From NCBI GenBank assembly GCA_963843735.1, contig CAWJLN010000008.1:164818-228817 (forward strand): 64,000 bases of DNA. The letters run 5' to 3'. The stretch comes from an uncultured Gammaproteobacteria bacterium. GTDB lineage: Bacteria > Pseudomonadota > Gammaproteobacteria > JAKDMP01. Positions 4,321-25,799 of this stretch are shown here, in pieces; the stretch's first letter is position 1; each line of letters opens with the position of its first letter. A program made the translations under genes and the position numbers. The notes beneath the pieces were generated by a model that ran no database searches, was not told where the DNA came from, and was given only the letters and a program-made list of their open reading frames with translations.

Positions 4321-4574
4321 ATTGTACTTGCGCTGATCGAAAGAACGAAAGCGGGTAAAACCCCGAAATCGGCTCTATACTTCTGCGTGTTATACGCTGC
4401 GGGTGACGAACCACGGCAAGCTGGTGGGCCGAGTACGTGTTCAAGAACGGCGATCTCGTGAGCATCCGCGAGATCAAAGACAAGCAATAGACCGATTTTG
4501 CTTCTCCGCGCCACGGCGTCGCGGCAGGGGCGGGCGCTACAATAATCCGTTGCCGCACTCGCGACGGAGCGTTC

Positions 4575-7500
4575 ATGGCGCAGCCGGCCGAAAGTCTGAA
4601 AATCGGGTTTCCGCCCTTCGTATTCGGCGGCGAGGCGCCCGTGCCCGAGGGGCTGCGCGCGGCGATCAACCGCGAGTTCCTGGCCGACGAGACGGCGGCG
4701 ATCGAGCGGCTGATTGCGCAAGCGCGCCCGGACGCGCAAACCGCGCAGTGCATCGAGGCGCGAGCGCGGGGCTTGGTCGAGGCCGTGCGCGGCGCTTCGG
4801 GCGATCAGGGCGGGGTCGAGGCGTTCCTGCACCAGTACGACCTGTCTTCCGAGGAAGGCATCGTGCTCATGTGCCTCGCCGAGGCGCTGATCCGCATTCC
4901 CGACGCCGATACCGCCGACAAACTCATCCGCGACAAGCTGGCGCGCGGAAACTGGTCGGAAAAGCTCGGCGAGAGCCGTTCGCTGTTCGTGAACGCATCC
5001 ACCTGGGGTTTGATGCTCACCGGCCGATTGGTGAGCCTGGACGAAGGCGTGGAAAAAAATCCCGCGTCCTTCCTTGCGCGCATGACGCAGCGCACGGGCG
5101 AACCGATCGTGCGCACGGCGATGCGCCAGGCCATGCGCATCCTCGGACGCCAGTTTGTGATGGGCCGCAACATTAAAGAAGCGCTTTCCCGCGCGGGCGA
5201 ACGCGACAACCGCATCTATCGCTATAGTTTCGACATGCTCGGCGAGGCGGCGCTCACCGAGGCGGACGCGCGACTCTTTCACAAGGCGTACCGAGAGGCG
5301 ATCGAGGCGATCGGCGCGGCGAATAAACAAACCGACATCTTCGATGCGCACGGTATCTCGGTCAAGCTCTCGGCGCTTTATCCACGTTATGAACTCGCGC
5401 GCCGCGACGATGCGCTCGGCGCATTGGTGCCGCGGCTGAAGTCGCTTGCCGAAGCGGCCAAGGTGGCCGGCATCGGCCTCACCGTGGATGCCGAAGAGGC
5501 GGTGCGCCTCGATCTTTCACTGGACATCGTCGAGGCCGTGTACCGCGATCCGATCCTGGACGGTTACGAGGGTTTCGGGCTTGCGGTGCAGGCATATCAG
5601 AAACGCGCGCCCGCGGTTATAGACTGGCTCGCGGCGCTTGCGGCGGAGGTCGGCCGGCGCATCCCGGTGCGTCTCGTGAAGGGCGCGTACTGGGACAGCG
5701 AGATCAAGTTCGCGCAAATCGCGGGCCTCGACGACTATCCGGTGTTCACACGCAAGGTCAATACGGACGTGTGCTACCTCGCCTGCGCCAGGCGCATGCT
5801 GGCCGCGGGCGCTGCCTTGTATCCGCAGTTCGCGACGCACAACGCCTATACGCTTGCCGCGATTGTCGAGTTCGCCGGCGCACGCAGGGACTACGAATTC
5901 CAGCGTCTGCACGGCATGGGCGAGACGCTATACGGCGAACTGCTCGACAAGGAGGGCAAGGGGCGGCATTGCCGCGTGTACGCGCCGGTCGGCGCGCATC
6001 GCGAGCTGCTGCCGTATCTGGTGCGGCGCCTGCTTGAAAACGGCGCCAACACTTCCTTTGTGCACCGCATCGGCGATCCACGCGAGTCGATCGAAAAAAT
6101 CGTAGCCGATCCAATTGCGCTTGCCGCTGCGAACGAACCCAAACGGCATCCGAAGATTCCGCTGCCGCGCGATCTTTATGCACCGCTGCGCAGGAACTCG
6201 CGCGGGATCAACACCGCCGATCTCGCCACGCTTGCAGGCTTGCGCGAGAACATGGAGCAGGTGCTGAGCGAAGATTGGCGCGCAATGCCCATCGTGAACG
6301 GAAAGGAACGCAAGGGGCGTTCGCGTCCGGTCAGCGATCCCGCTGACAACCGGCGCATCGTGGGCGAGGTTGTCGATGCCGACGCGGCGGCGGTGACCGA
6401 AGCCATCGGTATCGCACAGGCGGCGCAGCCGCGCTGGGATGCGACGCCCGCCGTCGAACGTGCGGCGATACTCGATCGCGCAGCGGATCTGCTCGAAGCG
6501 CGCATGCCCGAATTCATGGCGCTGTGCGTGCGCGAGGCAGGCAAGAGCATTCCCGACGGCATCGCCGAAGTGCGCGAGGCGGTGGATCATCTGCGCTACA
6601 ACGCCGCCGAATGCCGACGCCAGTTTGGCGCGCCGCTTGAGTTGCCGGGACCGACCGGTGAACACAACGAATTGCAGTTGCACGGGCGCGGTGTGTTCGT
6701 CTGCATCAGCCCGTGGAATTTTCCGGTCGCAATCTTTCTCGCCCAGGTGAGCGGTGCGCTCGCGGCGGGCAACGCCGTGATCGCGAAACCCGCCGAGCAG
6801 ACTTCGCTGATCGGCTGCCGCGCGGTGCAGCTGTTGCACGAGGCCGGCGTGCCGGGCGATGTGCTGCATTTTCTGCCCGGCGATGGGCCCACCGTCGGAC
6901 AGGCCGCAGTAGGCGATCCACGCATCGCGGGCGTCGCCTTCACCGGTTCCACCGAGACCGCGCGCGCGATCAACCTGACGCTCGCCGAACGCGACGGATC
7001 GCTTGCGACCTTGATCGCCGAAACGGGCGGGCAGAACGCGATGATCGTGGATTCTTCGGCACTGCCCGAACAGGTGGTGCTCGACGTCGCCGGTTCCGCC
7101 TTCGGCAGCGCGGGCCAGCGCTGTTCGGCATTGCGAGTATTGTGCGTGCAGGAGGAAATTGCGCCGCGCGTGCTCGAGATACTCGCTGGCTACATGGAGA
7201 CGCTCACCGTCGGCGATCCGGGACTGCTCGCGACCGACGTCGGTCCGGTGATAGATCACGATGCGCGCAAGATACTCGAAGCGCACGCGGAAGCGATTTC
7301 GCGAAAGGGCAAAGTGATCGCGCACGTGCCCTTGCCGGAGGCCTGTTCGGTCGGCAGTTTCGTCGCGCCGCTCGCGGTCGAAATCGAGGGCATCGAAGTG
7401 CTGGAACGCGAAGTATTCGGCCCCATCTTGCACGTTCTGCGCTACCGCTCGCGTGATCTCAAGCGCCTGGTCGAGGCGGTGAACGCGACCGGTTACGGGC

Positions 7501-21216: not shown

Positions 21217-22305
21217 ATGAATGCGTCGCTCAACCTTGGCATGCAGGTCACCACCTTCGAGAATCCGATGAAGGTGGACGGTTTCGAGTTCGTGGAATTT
21301 GCAGCACCGGATCCGAAGCTGCTGCACGATCTTTTCCCGCGGCTCGGATTCACCGTTGTAGCCCGGCACAAATCGAAGAAAATCACCCTTTATCGCGAAG
21401 GGAAATGCAACTTCCTGGTCAACGAGGAACCGGGTTCGTTTGCCGCCGATTTTGCCGCGAAGCACGGTCCCTGCGCCTGCGGCTTTGCCATTCGTTTCTC
21501 GCGGCCGGGTGCCGAGGTGCTGCGTGCGACGCTCGCCAACGGCGCCGAGGAAATGACGGACAAGGCTTCGAGCCGCGCCATCAGCGTGCCGGTGATCAAG
21601 GGCATCGGCGGCTGCATGCTGTATCTCGTGGATCGTTACGGCGAAAATGGCGAGGTGTACGAAGACGAATACGAGTGGCTGCCGGGCGTGGATCGCAATC
21701 CCGAGGGTTTCGGCCTGACCTTTATTGACCATCTCACCCACAATCTGCATTTTGGCGAGATGGCAAAGTGGGCCGGCTACTACGAACGCCTGTTCAACTT
21801 TCGCGAGATTCGCTATTTCGACATCAAGGGCGCGAAGACCGGTCTCGTTTCGAAGGCGATGACCGCGCCCGACGGCATGGTACGCATTCCGCTCAACGAA
21901 TCCTCCGATCCGAAGAGCCAGATCAACGAGTATCTTGACGAATACAAGGGCGAGGGCATCCAGCACATCGCCTGCTTTACCGACAGCATTTACGAAACCG
22001 TGGAGGCCATGCGCAAGGCCGGCGTCGAATTTCTCGATACGCCCGATGCCTATTTCGAGATGGTGGACGAGCGCGTCCCGAATCACGGTGAGGATTTGGC
22101 GCGTCTCGCAAAGAACAAGATTCTGATCGACGCCGATACGGAGACGAAGAAGAAACTTCTGCTGCAGATTTTTACACAGAACTGCATCGGACCGATTTTC
22201 TTCGAGATCATCCAGCGCAAGGGCAACGAAGGCTTCGGCGAGGGCAACTTCACCGCGCTGTTCGAGTCCATCGAGCGCGATCAGATGAAACGCGGCGTAC
22301 TTTGA
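21217..22305 (+). CDS. hppD: 4-hydroxyphenylpyruvate dioxygenase
   Basis: 362 aa intact; two VOC-fold modules and C-terminal HPPD iron-ligand region (GIQHIACFTD ... FFEIIQRKG ... GFGEGNFTALFESIE). Confidence 0.9.
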   Translation: MNASLNLGMQVTTFENPMKVDGFEFVEFAAPDPKLLHDLFPRLGFTVVARHKSKKITLYREGKCNFLVNEEPGSFAADFAAKHGPCACGFAIRFSRPGAEVLRATLANGAEEMTDKASSRAISVPVIKGIGGCMLYLVDRYGENGEVYEDEYEWLPGVDRNPEGFGLTFIDHLTHNLHFGEMAKWAGYYERLFNFREIRYFDIKGAKTGLVSKAMTAPDGMVRIPLNESSDPKSQINEYLDEYKGEGIQHIACFTDSIYETVEAMRKAGVEFLDTPDAYFEMVDERVPNHGEDLARLAKNKILIDADTETKKKLLLQIFTQNCIGPIFFEIIQRKGNEGFGEGNFTALFESIERDQMKRGVL

Positions 22306-22324: not shown

Positions 22325-22779
22325 CCCCCTCTCCCTTTGGGAGAGGGTTGGGGTGAGGGTCAAAGATGGTTCAAGGCAAGAATACACCGCTGCCCACCAT
22401 TACAAAGACTGAAGCGAGGCAACTTCGGAGGAAGACTACAGACGCCGAAAATCAATTGTGGTATTACCTGCGTGCAGGTCGATTGGCGGGATTGAAGTTT
22501 AGGCGCCAGCATCCGGCACCGCCTTATATCCTGGATTTTTACTGCGACAGTGCGAAACTCGTTGTGGAGTTGGATGGGGCGCAGCATAGCGCTGGTGCTG
22601 ATTCGGCTCGCACGAATGCGCTGGAACGCAAGGGGCTGAAAGTTATAAGATTCTGGGACAACGATGCATTACTGGATACGCGAAGCGTGCTGGCGGTAAT
22701 TTTGGACGCAGCGCAAGCGAGAACCCTCACCCCAGCCCTCTCCCGGTGGGAGAGGGGGCAGGAAGATGGAGATGAGTGA
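22325..22779 (+). mobile_element. miniature element: DUF559 (Vsr/endonuclease-like) ORF flanked by about 36-bp inverted repeats, inserted between hppD and hmgA
   Basis: Left repeat ccccctctccctttgggagagggttggggtgagggt (22325-22360); right repeat accctcaccccagccctctcccggtgggagaggggg (22724-22758), the reverse complement with a few mismatches; each arm also contains an internal ccctctccc/gggagaggg hairpin. Confidence 0.6.
22366..22779 (+). CDS. DUF559-domain protein (very-short-patch-repair-endonuclease-like fold)
   Basis: 137 aa; core [21 protein letters not shown]...[17 protein letters not shown] typical of DUF559; the ORF C-terminus runs through the right inverted repeat and its stop overlaps the hmgA start. 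Confidence 0.6.
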
Positions 22780-24089
22780 AGAGATGAAAAACCCCGATTA
22801 CATGTCCGGTTTCGGTAACGAGTTTGCGACCGAGGCTTTGCCGGGCGCATTGCCGGTGGGGCAGAACTCGCCGCAGAAGGCGCCGTACGGACTCTACGCC
22901 GAGCAGCTTTCGGGCACGGCATTTACCGCGCCGCGTCATCTCAACCGCCGCAGTTGGCTGTACCGCATTCGTCCGGGGGCGATGCATAAACCGTTCGAGC
23001 TGCTGGACGAGGGGCGCTTCCACAGCCGCTTTGAAGAACAGCCAGCTACACCCAATCAATTGCGCTGGGATCCTTTCCCGCTGCCGAAAAAAGCCGTCGA
23101 CTTCGTGGACGGTTTGTTCACGCTGGCGGGCAACGGCGGCGCGGCCGAACAGGCCGGCTGCGGCATACATGTTTATGCCGCCAACCGTTCCATGCAGAAT
23201 CGCTTTTTCTACAATGCCGACGGCGAACTGCTTATCGTCCCGGAACAGGGCCGGCTGCGTCTGGCGACGGAACTGGGCGTGCTCGAGATCGCACCGCTGG
23301 AGATCGCCGTGATTCCGCGCGGTCTGCGCTTCCGGGTGGAACTGCCAGACGGGGAGGCGCGCGGCTATGTGGCGCGAGAACTTCGGGACGGCGCTGCGCC
23401 TGCCCGAACTCGGTCCCATCGGCTCCAACTCGCTCGCCAATGCGCGCGATTTTCTTTACCCCGTAGCGGCCTATGAAGACGAGGAAGGAAAGTGTGAACT
23501 CGTCGCAAAATTCCAGGGCCACCTGTGGTCGGCGGAGATGGATCATTCGCCGCTCGACGTCGTCGCCTGGCACGGCAACAACGCGCCATACAAATACGAT
23601 CTCATGCGTTTCAACACCATCGGCTCGATCAGCTACGATCATCCCGATCCCTCGATTTTCACGGTGCTGACCTCGCCGAGCGACACGCCCGGCACCGCGA
23701 ACATGGACTTTGTGATCTTTCCGCCGCGCTGGCTGGTCGCCGAGCACAGCTTCCGCCCGCCGTGGTATCACAGGAACGTGATGAGCGAATTCATGGGCCT
23801 GATCCGCGGCGAATACGATGCCAAGGCCGGCGGTTTCCTGCCCGGCGGCGCCTCGCTGCATAACTGCATGAGCGGCCATGGTCCGGACGCGGAAAGCTAC
23901 GAAAAGGCCGTGGCGGCGGATACATCGAAACCACAGCATGTTGCCGACACCATGGCCTTCATGTTCGAAACGCGCCGCGTGATTCATCCGACCCGCCAGG
24001 CGCTCGAAGCGCAGGAACTGCAAGGCGATTACCACGATGTTGGAGCGGAATCGAAAAACATTTCGATCCGGACCGGCCATGATTTCTGA
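22766..24089 (+). pseudogene. hmgA: homogentisate 1,2-dioxygenase, disrupted by a frameshift near 23,367-23,375
   Basis: N-terminal 200 aa ([25 protein letters not shown]...) lie in frame 2 (ORF 22766..23476). The remainder ([27 protein letters not shown] ... HDF) lies in frame 1 (ORF 23367..24089). Junction ...GEARGYV|(C)ENFG fits a 1-nt indel. Confidence 0.75.
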
Positions 24090-24112
24090 ACAAAACACAA
24101 AGGGATTGATGA

Positions 24113-25103
24113 ATGAAACTGGGAAGTTTGAAGGAGGGCGACCGTGACGGCGCATTGATCGTCGTCAGTCGTGACCTCGACCATGCCGTGCGCGCTGCGG
24201 ACGTTGCCGCCAGCCTGCGCGTGGCGCTGGAAGAATTGGGACGAATGCCGCGCCGCGAACTGAGCGGCGCTCTCGGATGCGTTGAATGCCGGCAAGGCGA
24301 AGGGTGCCTTCGACCTCGATCTTGCCGCACTTGCGGCGCCGCTGCCGCGAGCCTGGGAATTTCTCGACGGCTCGGCCTATCTGCCGCATGTCGAGCGCGT
24401 GCGCAAGGCGCGCGGGGTCGAGGTGCCGGATACCTTCTATACCGATCCGCTCATGTACCAGGCGACGAGCGCCGGTTTTCTCGGGCCGCGCGATCCGATT
24501 CCGGTCGCGAGCGAGGATTACGGCATAGACCTCGAAGCCGAAGTCGTGGTGGTGACCGACGAGGTACCGATGGGTGCCACGCCGGAGCAGGCCGGAGAGA
24601 AAATACGGCTCGTCGGTCTGGTCAACGATGTCAGCCTGCGTGGGCTGATTCCCGCCGAACTCAAGAAGGGTTTCGGCTTCGTGCAGAGCAAACCGCGTTC
24701 GGCGCTATCGCCGGTGTTTGTGACGCCGGACGAACTCGGCGATGCGTGGCGCGATTACAAACTCCATCTGCCGATGCTCACCCGCCTCAACGGCAATCGG
24801 CTGGGCGAGGCCGAGTGCGGCGTGGACATGCAGTTCAGTTTCGCGCAGCTCGTGGCACACGCGGCCAAGACGCGATCGCTTGCGGCCGGCACGCTCATCG
24901 GTTCCGGCACCATCGCCAATCAGGACACGGACAAGGGCGCCTCCTGCCTCGCCGAGCAGCGCACCGTGGAAACGTTGCGCGACGGCAAGCCGACGACGCC
25001 GTTTCTGAAATTCGGCGACAGCGTGCGCATCGAGATTCTCGACGCCGCCGGCAAGAGCATCTTCGGCGCGATCGAACAGACCGTGGAGCAATACAAGCCT
25101 TGA
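24113..25103 (+). pseudogene. fumarylacetoacetate hydrolase (FAH) family protein, disrupted by a frameshift near 24,260-24,285
   Basis: N-terminus MKLGSLKEGDRDGALIVVSRDL (FAH-family start) is in the frame of ORF 24113; the remaining about 270 aa (PLPRAWEFLDGSAYLPHVERVRKARG ... EQYKP) are in the frame of ORF 24282. Confidence 0.7.
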
Positions 25104-25743
25104 TCGAACTCTACGACTACTGGCGATCCTCGGCGGCGTATCGCATTCGCATCGCGCTCAATCTGAAAGGTCTCGCCGCACAGCAGCATTTAGTGAACCT
25201 GCGCGAAGGTGAACAGAAGAGTGCAAGCTATCGGCGCATGAACGCGCTTGGCCGCGTGCCGACGCTGGTGGACGACGGACAGGCGTTCACGCAGTCGCTG
25301 GCGATTCTCGAATACCTGGAAGAGCGCTATCCCGAGCCGCCCCTGCTGCCCGAAGATGTCGCCGCAAGGGCGCGGGTGAGGGCGCTCGCTCAACTCGTTG
25401 CCTGCGACATCCATCCGCTGAACAATCTGGGCGTGCTCAAATTCCTCGAGAACGAATTAAAGATAGGTGAGGAGAAGAAATTGATCTGGTATCGCCACTG
25501 GGTGGCAACCGGATTCGAGGCCCTGGAAACTTTGCTTGCCGGCGATACAGCGTAGCGGCCGTTTCTGTCATGGCGATACGCCGGGTCTTGCCGATGTTTG
25601 TCTTGTTCCGCAGATGTATAACGCGCGCCGCTTCGACTGCGATCTTCTCGGCCTATCCGACTATCGTGCGCATTGATGCCGCCTGCGCCGGGTTGGAAGC
25701 GTTTCGACAAGCTGCCCCCGAACGCCAGCCCGACGCGCAGTAG
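25100..25743 (+). pseudogene. maiA: maleylacetoacetate isomerase (GST zeta), two frameshifts (about 25,545-25,560 and about 25,640-25,655)
   Basis: TTG start overlapping the FAH stop; IELYDYWRSSAAYRIRIALNLKG (GST N-terminal domain) is in frame with ORF 24113..25555 up to ...LLAGDTA*. It continues in a second frame (GRFCHGDTPGLADVCLVPQMYNARRFDCDL) and a third (SAYPTIVRIDAACAGLEAFRQAAPERQPDAQ*). Confidence 0.7.
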
Positions 25744-25799
25744 TTTTTCAGCAGCCTGTTAATGCTTCCAGCTACGGAATGACGGAATGAATCAGAGCC

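Follow-up and report, generated by a model that had tools for sequence, protein, structure and literature searches.

The stretch of DNA analysed here (the window) comprises 64,000 nucleotides (nt) of contig CAWJLN010000008.1 (positions 164,818 to 228,817, forward strand; assembly GCA_963843735.1) from an uncultured gammaproteobacterium of the lineage JAKDMP01. It raises the question of why a small gene of the endonuclease-like DUF559 family, enclosed by inverted repeats, stands between the operon genes hppD and hmgA. A sequence-only reading of the locus had described gene and repeats as a discrete, possibly selfish insertion with a polar effect on hmgA. The feature is interpreted here as one copy of a widespread, compact chromosomal cassette, in which a DUF559 gene of about 400 bp lies inside an inverted pair of the BoxC/PIT/TMECO repeat, and homing-like spread is, on balance, the favoured explanation. 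The descriptive part of this interpretation, namely a discrete repeat-bounded unit that encodes a selected nuclease-fold protein, has been gained, swapped, degraded and lost, and carries structurally selected arms, is put forward with considerable confidence. The features of the locus are listed below.

22325 to 22360, plus strand: left inverted-repeat arm with the BoxC/PIT/TMECO triplex motif, an exact match to the published pattern
22327 to 22335, 22336 to 22338 and 22339 to 22347: C-rich block, loop and complementary G-rich block of the left arm
22348 to 22350 and 22351 to 22359: spacer and mirror G-rich block, forming the inner part of the left arm
22355 to 22359, plus strand: GAGGG in the inner G block of the left arm, 6 nt 5' of the ATG, a probable ribosome-binding site of the DUF559 open reading frame (ORF) judging from its sequence and position
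22366 to 22779, plus strand: DUF559 ORF of 137 amino acids, Pfam DUF559 (PF04480), E=1.3e-34
22723 to 22758, minus strand: right inverted-repeat arm, with the same triplex motif at 22724 to 22756, in the 3' end of the DUF559 ORF
21217 to 22305, plus strand: hppD (4-hydroxyphenylpyruvate dioxygenase), the upstream host gene, intact; Pfam Glyoxalase_5 (4e-53) plus Glyoxalase
22766 to 24089, plus strand: hmgA (homogentisate 1,2-dioxygenase), the downstream host gene, frameshifted, from profile matches and comparison with the related locus L001 (L numbers denote the compared loci)

The two arms are 36 nt long and lie 362 nt apart. They are inverted, as originally described, and 89 % complementary with 32 of 36 positions paired, for which the term near-perfect was slightly generous. 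The hairpin reported inside each repeat is present in both: every arm is a CCCTCTCCC-NNN-GGGAGAGGG hairpin followed on the ORF side by GGGGTGAGGG, and both the hairpin motif and a 22-nt segment, GGGAGAGGGTTGGGGTGAGGGT, occur exactly twice in the window and in none of 100 shuffles. The plan of an arm is a C-rich block of 9 to 10 bp, a loop, the complement of the block, 2 to 3 nt, and a G-rich block that mirrors the complement, a sequence arrangement consistent with a hairpin that can accept a third strand. The left arm begins 20 nt past the hppD stop codon, and the last ~18 residues of the DUF559 protein are the right arm translated. The DUF559 stop codon (22777 to 22779) falls within the first codons of hmgA (ATG at 22766 or 22772), giving an overlap of 8 to 14 nt, so that the claimed overlap of stop and hmgA start is real but is not a literal ATGA overlap. 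The immediate neighbours of the ORF are hppD and hmgA, with no methyltransferase ORF adjoining.

The arms are a known repeat, named BoxC first, later PIT (potential intrastrand triplex) and later TMECO (PMC4666352), an identity that had escaped the sequence-only reading. The published pattern, 5'-CCCTCNCCC N3-6 GGGNGAGGG N3 GGGNGAGGG-3' (Holder et al. 2015, PMC4666352), is matched exactly twice in the window, at 22327 to 22359 on the plus strand and at 22724 to 22756 on the minus strand, and in none of 100 shuffles. The full repeat measures about 45 to 50 nt and consists of CTTnAAG, the C block, the loop, the G block, TT, the mirror G block and TnCGG. Cataloguing of the repeat began in the 1990s, and its copies are markers of variable regions in Escherichia coli genomes; the census lists 3,610 copies in 262 proteobacterial genomes, among them 23 in E. 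coli K-12, which include five inverted pairs and are all stated to be intergenic (PMC4666352). Their flanking genes share no function, association with transposons, phages or plasmids is not reported, and the isolated G-rich strand of E. coli repeat oligonucleotides forms a stable triplex in vitro (PMC4666352). The repeat is described as lacking promoter and terminator activity in PMC4666352, where Hoyne and Maher 2002 is cited for the statement. Rfam covariance models gave nothing at the gathering threshold in the window, and chance-level matches only at the arms (E 0.55 to 0.99).

The geometry of the window arms, inverted with the third blocks inward, is that of the E. coli hrpB|mrcB pair, which starts 12 nt past the hrpB stop codon and has 16 nt in place of the ORF. 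The E. coli pairs share with the window arms the inverted, facing copies, the inward third block, the position just past a stop codon and the co-directional genes. They differ in being ~16 to 30 nt apart, always intergenic and, as described, without any gene, function or mobile element linked to them, whereas the window arms enclose 362 nt with the DUF559 ORF, and the right arm, which lies inside that ORF and is translated, departs from the intergenic placement of the E. coli copies. Neither 'endonuclease' nor 'DUF' appears in the text of PMC4666352, and none of the papers mentioning DUF559 in the literature searched treats repeats. No publication linking DUF559 to BoxC was found in that literature, in which Hoyne et al. 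2000 and 2002 were represented through citation only. Repeat and domain were each known before; their composite, and the idea of DUF559 as the partner of the repeat, are absent from the literature searched.

The protein between the arms matches PF04480 with 118.8 bits (cut-off 20.6) over residues 14 to 115, and matches the NCBIfam model for YcjD equivalogs, PRK09767, with 102.9 bits (E 1e-29) under a cut-off of 218, placing it in the same domain and outside the YcjD orthologue group. When a profile of 37 homologues was compared with the PDB, the closest solved structure was 3HRL_A (E=9.2e-37), the one solved member of the family and a structural-genomics 'endonuclease-like protein' of Neisseria gonorrhoeae without published function, and the next match, to the homing endonuclease I-Bth0305I (3R3P), was not significant (E=0.38). 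Residues D57, E68, D70 and H74 are invariant in the 37 homologues, as are FRRQHP and RFW. The four residues may correspond to the catalytic residues of Vsr, a putative mapping guided by the Vsr sequence and the clade assignment. A published classification places Vsr, DUF559 and 3R3P in one PD-(D/E)XK clade (PMC3424549). The ratio dN/dS of the DUF559 gene is 0.09 to 0.24 across pairs and 0.24 between the window and L001, so that the protein is maintained by purifying selection. The Pfam scan of the window protein found no match to the Vsr family (PF03852) and no recognised transposase domain, the matches being DUF559 and a sub-threshold MTES_1575; the anti-phage defence models of PADLOC returned only fragments of large proteins at E~0.004, and the phage gene families of PHROGs gave no match. 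The DUF559 family as a whole has at least 1,345 significant homologues.

Nearly all of the closest homologues (57 to 84 % identity) end in RTLTPxPLPxGEGL or a variant of it, which is the right arm translated, and strict patterns located the arm-encoded tail in 103 of the 121 closest protein homologues. The tail is read in two or three reading frames, the frame in the window differing from that of the others (...TLTPSPSPEGRG), and because several frames are used it is conserved as DNA and not as peptide. For annotation, C-terminal tails of the PLPxGEG type are translated repeat rather than a protein motif. The label 'very-short-patch-repair endonuclease' on these genes is probably wrong as well, the database name being an annotation transfer: a related fold and a motif layout (D...E/D-x-D-G-x-x-H; ...RFWxxE) are shared with Vsr endonuclease, from which the DUF559 gene differs in having no Vsr Pfam match, no adjacent cytosine methyltransferase and another flanking architecture.

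The recurrence of this arrangement was measured at 80 fetched loci with DUF559 relatives, one genome per species, 77 of which had enough flanking sequence. A strict regular-expression classifier of arms, which mis-scored obvious arms (L002 and L003), was replaced; the inverted-repeat score between flanks was a Smith-Waterman score, the null distribution came from shifted windows, and the threshold was set at the 99th percentile. The observed median score was 55, against a null mean of 20 and a null maximum of 33, and 61 of the 77 loci lay above the threshold, bearing out the earlier remark that DUF559 genes often occur with palindromic modules. The same arm motif was found in Gamma-, Beta- and Alphaproteobacteria, Nitrospirota, Desulfobacterota, Chloroflexota, Elusimicrobiota and others. 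Within 787 kb there were 141 motif matches, 109 of them at most 200 nt from the ends of a DUF559 gene and 32 away from DUF559. The arm-ORF-arm architecture thus recurs around DUF559 genes across phyla and at many operon junctions. Close relatives of the window protein from the same order (57 to 62 % identity) are found at pilC (T2SSF)|coaE, rfbB|rfbA and DUF308|ubiA, and another lies 3' of an E2 acyltransferase gene; all of these are intergenic, lie directly past a stop codon and point the same way as the upstream gene. Such co-orientation was counted at 42 of 62 other loci using a rough ORF heuristic.

At the hppD|hmgA junction itself, the three closest homologues (84, 72 and 62 % identity) have the same hppD-DUF559-hmgA position and both arms, and their arms are better conserved than the ORF. 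Occupied junctions were found in Rhodanobacter, Dokdonella, Thermomonas, Arenimonas, Aquimonas, Xanthomonas chitinilytica, Lysobacter, Luteimonas and Pseudoxanthomonas, in isolates of Dyella, Lysobacter koreensis and Rhodanobacter, and in 16 metagenomic contigs, the metagenome scan having been seeded on the C-terminus of hppD. This amounts to 35 Xanthomonadales-like lineages across a whole order-level clade, with the ORF co-oriented with the operon in 35 of 35. The relatives of its hppD and hmgA place the host of the window, too, among Xanthomonadales-like gammaproteobacteria. Clean empty junctions, with a spacer of -8 to about 60 nt and no repeat, are present in L084, L086, L096, L105, L108 and others, and L086 has the most similar hppD (93 %) among the metagenome-scan relatives. 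The comparison of spacers proposed in the sequence-only reading therefore gives tight junctions in relatives without the cassette. Where relatives have the gene, the repeat boundaries are there as well, and in many relatives the gene is missing, so that the relatives do not present the ancestral gene without boundaries that had been named as the contrary outcome.

Intermediate states were also found at this junction. The spacer of L100 holds a single hairpin, GAAGCCCCTCTCCCACCGGGAGAGGGGCTTTGAAG, such as would be the expected product of recombination between the two arm hairpins, and that of L091 a terminator-like hairpin with the same outer bases. In L109 the DUF559 gene is internally deleted with the right arm intact, L111 has an arm pair without an ORF and is sister to the occupied L020, and some hppD|hmgA spacers contain unrelated insertions. 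A host tree built from hppD and hmgA shows occupied sites throughout the ingroup, down to its deepest branch, with empty ones scattered among them; the four outgroups are empty. By these comparisons the junction is an old and repeatedly re-used site. The description of the feature as a discrete insertion is upheld for the unit, given the clean empty sites and the unrelated junctions, and fails where it implied a recent or private event, 35 lineages being occupied; its suspected selfish nature agrees with the behaviour of ORF and repeats as a single discrete unit across junctions, with presence/absence and replacement.

A second kind of cassette was observed in the same spacer. In L088 (3481 to 4079) and L120 (3481 to 3964) it contains a GIY-YIG ORF (PF01541, 1e-17), frameshifted in L120, which is flanked by a different palindromic repeat of ~110 nt (GCCCTTCGACTTCGC...GCTACGCTCAGGGTGA...), solo remnants of which are found in the L116 and L137 spacers. 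The junction thus appears to be a hot spot at which at least two kinds of nuclease-plus-repeat cassette have settled. The L127 spacer (2246 to 2692) holds neither cassette, and has a hairpin with GTAG/CTAC-type ends (CTCCTACATGCGGG...GGATGTAGGAGCGCC), with a putative resemblance to GTAG-tagged REP elements.

Turnover of the ORF is seen most directly between nearly identical hosts. L092 and L021 are 97 % identical in hppD and 95 % in hmgA, and 60 % in DUF559; L016 and L097 are 95/95 in the host genes and 61 % in DUF559; L021 and L090 are 98/96 in the host genes and 89 % in DUF559. At the DNA level, L092 and L021 are 98 % identical up to the hppD stop codon and remain highly similar in the left arm, fall to ~65 % across the ORF, and recover at the right arm and hmgA. 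Because identity falls only between the arms in near-identical hosts, the ORF must have been replaced between constant arms. The dS of DUF559 is 2 to 4 times that of the flanks in several pairs. Between the window and L001, whose hppD proteins are 98 % identical, dS is 0.41 for DUF559, 0.52 for hppD and 0.57 for hmgA, and since the dS of the cassette equals that of its flanks, the window cassette was inherited vertically after the split from L001. Syntenic and non-syntenic genes are mixed in the DUF559 tree, where the former make up at least 2 to 3 clades, and long residence at the junction therefore does not amount to plain vertical descent. Pairs of arms without an ORF, at 4428 to 4524 in L024 and at 4789 to 4905 and 5316 to 5432 in L058, keep an ATGAAC or ATGAAT about 10 nt past the inner block, and the L024 remnant, ATGAACCCTCCG, reads MNPP, the usual DUF559 N-terminus. 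Because the start codon of the ORF is retained, these pairs look like internal-deletion derivatives. Presence and absence in close relatives, a host-incongruent phylogeny, and degenerate and lost copies are thus all found at hppD|hmgA, as they are for homing endonuclease genes.

The arms carry a further signature of selection. Of 143 arms, 121 were parsed. One base pair of the hairpin varies: 99 arms have T:A, 12 have C:G, in which both bases have changed in compensation, and 10 have a mismatch. The hairpin is therefore under selection. The third block mirrors the second block and is not a copy of it: a second block GGGGGAGGG comes with a third block GGGTGGGGG, and GGGGAGGG with GGGTGGGG. The mirror change of the third block is seen in at least six lineages (Lysobacter, Luteimonas, Rhodanobacter, Azospirillum, Hyphomonas and a gammaproteobacterial metagenome-assembled genome), and the arm variants of L005, L053 and L093 fit the mirror rule imperfectly. 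A mirror relation is what an antiparallel purine-motif triplex (G*G:C, T*A:T, A*A:T) demands, and neither an alternative hairpin nor a direct duplication would predict it. The arms therefore evolve under structural constraint as DNA, and because purine-motif triplexes cannot form in RNA, as stated in literature cited in PMC4666352, the constraint points to single-stranded DNA. This three-way covariation is evolutionary evidence for in vivo selection of a triplex-compatible arrangement, which is beyond the reach of biophysical work.

The mechanism proposed for the spread of the cassette in this homing-like manner can be offered only tentatively in its specific steps of cleavage and repair. The cassette would have no promoter of its own and be expressed by read-through of the host operon; no promoter-like or terminator-like site was found in a scan of the cassette, and its constant co-orientation at hppD|hmgA is the ground for proposing that it rides on operon transcription. 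The ribosome-binding site would lie in the inner G block, with arm pairing probably keeping translation low. Of 34 parsed cassettes, 24 have their first in-frame start codon 0 to 15 nt past the inner block, and in the predicted RNA fold both arms are paired over their full length (-194.5 kcal/mol, z = -5.8), a model in which DUF559 translation is probably controlled by the arms. The nuclease would recognize the folded arms, an ORF-less arm pair or a rival cassette, and break the DNA there; host recombination would then repair the break by copying a cassette-bearing template, the ~45-bp arms and the flanks serving as homology. Cassettes would spread, or replace one another, by this homing-like gene conversion; a later internal deletion would turn a cassette into an ORF-less BoxC pair, and a solo hairpin would be what remains once the two hairpins have recombined. 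Any target of DUF559 is more likely to be the repeat than a host gene, because the same subfamily sits in unrelated junctions.

Several observations weigh against homing-like spread. The repeat copies in the 64-kb window are the two arms only, and a clean empty site offers no arm pair as a target for homing. PD-(D/E)XK nucleases are unable to perform strand transfer, and colonization of new sites is thus unexplained. To our knowledge no biochemical activity is established for any DUF559 protein, and any cleavage target is conjectural. At ~45 bp, the arms offer barely enough homology for recombination. The gene occurs in 44 of 72,556 plasmid records, mostly chromids or mislabelled chromosomes, and in 2 of 50,697 phage records, and because of this near-absence the horizontal vehicle of the cassette is unexplained. 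No target-site duplication was separable from the palindromic outer end CTTnAAG, at which direct and inverted repeats are indistinguishable. Loci had been ranked by a query that included the arm-encoded tail, giving a mild bias to arm-bearing homologues from which the left arm is independent. The trees are neighbour-joining trees of 97 to 400 columns, and Mantel tests of DUF559 against host-gene distances were weak and too noisy to separate vertical from horizontal descent, a question decided instead by the comparisons of sister hosts. Finally, E. coli ycjD and the Neisseria, Azospirillum and cyanobacterial loci have degenerate or differently arranged repeats; the arm-flanked architecture is common, not universal.

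These departures from the plain arrangement take several forms. In E. coli (L060, 5001 to 5545; also L173), ycjD lies between sapF and fabI, is co-oriented with them, and ends in a degenerate hairpin, CCCTCTCCCTGAAAGAGCGAGGGGG, past which come a truncated duplicate of the ycjD 3' end and, after it, a single TMECO copy oriented like a 'left arm'. From its sequence, the locus looks like a rearranged relic of the cassette, and at least 80 % of the ycjD stretch is present in 3,377 of 5,426 complete E. coli genomes. On plasmid pAQ6 of Picosynechococcus PCC 7002 (L170, 1300 to 2000) the DUF559 gene is flanked on either side by directly oriented units of hairpin plus third block (C5/G5/G5); the Neisseria gonorrhoeae locus (L169) has a degenerate left motif only, and the Azospirillum locus (L171) has the left arm only, as a one-T/A variant. 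Four right-arm-type units stand in tandem with a ~72-nt period upstream of the cassette in L037 (4550 to 4860), and in L011 the left arm is triplicated with a degenerate middle copy (4819 to 4974) and the right arm duplicated (5336 to 5476). Motif pairs in L047 (1966 to 2076 and 6509 to 6594) have their third blocks outward and 10 to 35 nt between the hairpins, and resemble either the junction of two abutting cassettes or another kind of derivative.

A stronger form of the cassette model is that DUF559 is a structure-specific nuclease acting on the folded BoxC/PIT/TM repeat, that arm-DUF559-arm is the autonomous form of a so far unrecognized class of bacterial mobile element, and that ORF-less repeats are its non-autonomous derivatives. 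The juxtaposition of gene and repeat suggests that the DUF559 nuclease may be the missing protein partner of the orphan BoxC repeat, and the complete proposal is regarded as doubtful. If it were true, the orphan repeat family would gain an origin and DUF559 a function, the ORF-less BoxC/TM repeats, which number thousands over hundreds of genomes, would be explained as non-autonomous derivatives, and the system would be the first natural case of triplex DNA as the recognition element of a selfish-element nuclease. The data offer a testable origin for the repeat, as the ends and deletion remnants of nuclease cassettes, and predict a substrate for DUF559 proteins.

The closest competitor, considered unlikely though with real points in its favour, is modelled on the REPtron: a resident, near single-copy, vertically inherited DUF559 gene would make or mobilize the dispersed BoxC/TM repeats in trans while itself remaining immobile, its two arms being no more than the repeat copies nearest to it. 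The gene is flanked by inverted copies of a cognate repeat, is chromosomal and nearly absent from plasmids and phages, and has resided for long at a single syntenic site across an order; 32 of the 141 motif matches lie away from DUF559, tandem arrays (L037, L011) and pairs (L024, L036, L047) exist, and E. coli has 23 repeat copies (PMC4666352) with one DUF559 gene, ycjD. Such an immobile gene would not account for ORF replacement between constant arms in near-identical hosts, for the several different junctions held by close homologues, or for clean empty sites in close relatives, and the start codon kept in ORF-less pairs points to deletion derivatives and not to independently made repeats. 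A hydrolytic PD-(D/E)XK nuclease also lacks the covalent chemistry of HUH transposases. The likeness to REP/REPIN-RAYT systems (Nunvar 2010; Bertels and Rainey 2011, PMC3116915) extends to a small nuclease-type gene inside inverted cognate hairpin repeats, dispersed gene-less doublets, chromosomal location with rarity on plasmids and phages, and long persistence in lineages. The differences are that RAYTs are HUH/Y1 (IS200-like) transposases whereas DUF559 is a Vsr-like PD-(D/E)XK hydrolase without an HUH/Y1 match, that BoxC arms, unlike REP, carry a third, mirror block, and that the DUF559 gene comes and goes whereas RAYTs are stably inherited.

Free-standing homing endonuclease genes (EDxHD, I-Bth0305I, 3R3P), on which the favoured interpretation draws, share with the cassette the Vsr-like fold, a small nuclease gene of no other function at conserved-gene junctions, the cycle of invasion, degeneration and loss, and a host-incongruent phylogeny. 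A classical homing gene lies between the two halves of its target site, within one particular gene, whereas the DUF559 cassette is bounded by a portable, phylum-spanning inverted repeat. The cassette resembles both homing endonuclease genes and REP-RAYT and fails one defining feature of each. IS200/IS605 elements and miniature inverted-repeat transposable elements (MITEs) offer a further analogy, in a protein of ~130 amino acids with structured hairpin ends that are probably read as single-stranded DNA, and in ORF-less derivatives that keep both ends. The cassette differs from them in having no HUH or DDE transposase, in ends that are true inverted repeats, and in showing no evidence of target-site duplication or a circular intermediate. 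An integron cassette was ruled out, there being no attC or integrase and two symmetric ends.

That DUF559 is an ordinary host gene, a housekeeping or repair nuclease without mobility whose arms are cis-regulatory RNA or DNA (a panhandle affecting translation or stability, or decoupling hppD from hmgA), is judged quite improbable. The predicted RNA fold with its fully paired arms, the likely ribosome-binding site in the inner block, the purifying selection on the protein and the constant orientation at the 35 occupied sites would all suit such a gene. The presence/absence, turnover and decay at a single junction would not, nor would the same unit in unrelated operons. The arm sequence itself is conserved across phyla beyond what pairing requires, the mirror covariation of the third block is not needed by RNA helices and concerns a triplex type that, according to the literature cited in PMC4666352, RNA cannot form, and the repeat is also found without any ORF. 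A role in tyrosine catabolism was ruled out by the empty sites and the unrelated contexts.

The scenario of the sequence-only reading, a recent one-off insertion that was polar on hmgA and led to downstream decay, is very improbable. Its basis is that hmgA, fahA and maiA are frameshifted while hppD and the genes upstream are intact, and that the DUF559 stop codon overlaps the hmgA start; the reported decay of downstream genes is evident in comparison with L001. The polar effect did not hold: L001, L002, L003 and the Dyella, Lysobacter and Rhodanobacter isolates have the co-oriented cassette together with a full-length hmgA, and the cassette contains no terminator-like site. By the dS comparison with L001, the insertion is older than the split from that locus and the frameshifts are not; since the cassette predates the split and the L001 genes are intact, it is not the cause of the frameshifts in hmgA, fahA and maiA.

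An invertible segment, in which the inverted repeats would be substrates of a programmed inversion switching DUF559 or hmgA expression, can be dismissed almost outright, since all 35 occupied sites are co-oriented with the operon, no recombinase gene is adjacent, and the 14-fold enrichment of 'DUF559 domain-containing protein' among predicted inversion targets, which came with a 10-fold enrichment of 'endonuclease domain-containing protein' in a screen of inverted repeats overlapping coding sequences (PMC9881135), is explained by the right arm lying inside the ORF.

The decay downstream of the cassette extends over the hmgA-fahA-maiA stretch at 22766 to 25750, which includes one further feature.

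24113 to 25103, plus strand: fahA (fumarylacetoacetase), frameshifted near its 5' end (24231 to 24263), outside the cassette

Here hmgA is in two pieces, 22766 to 23476 and 23367 to 24089, both of which match HgmA_N/HgmA_C; relative to L001 it has one additional nt at 23373 and lacks one near 24035. In fahA there are insertions of 1, 1 and 2 nt at 24231 to 24263, and maiA has further indels. Upstream of hmgA, hppD is intact, and so are the transporter and tryptophan dioxygenase genes; cassette-bearing relatives have a full-length hmgA, most of them also full-length fahA and maiA. The frameshifts look like a real loss of the homogentisate-degrading steps, a local assembly error being less likely. 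With hppD intact and hmgA broken, homogentisate would be expected to accumulate, giving a pyomelanin phenotype, provided that the indels are not assembly errors.

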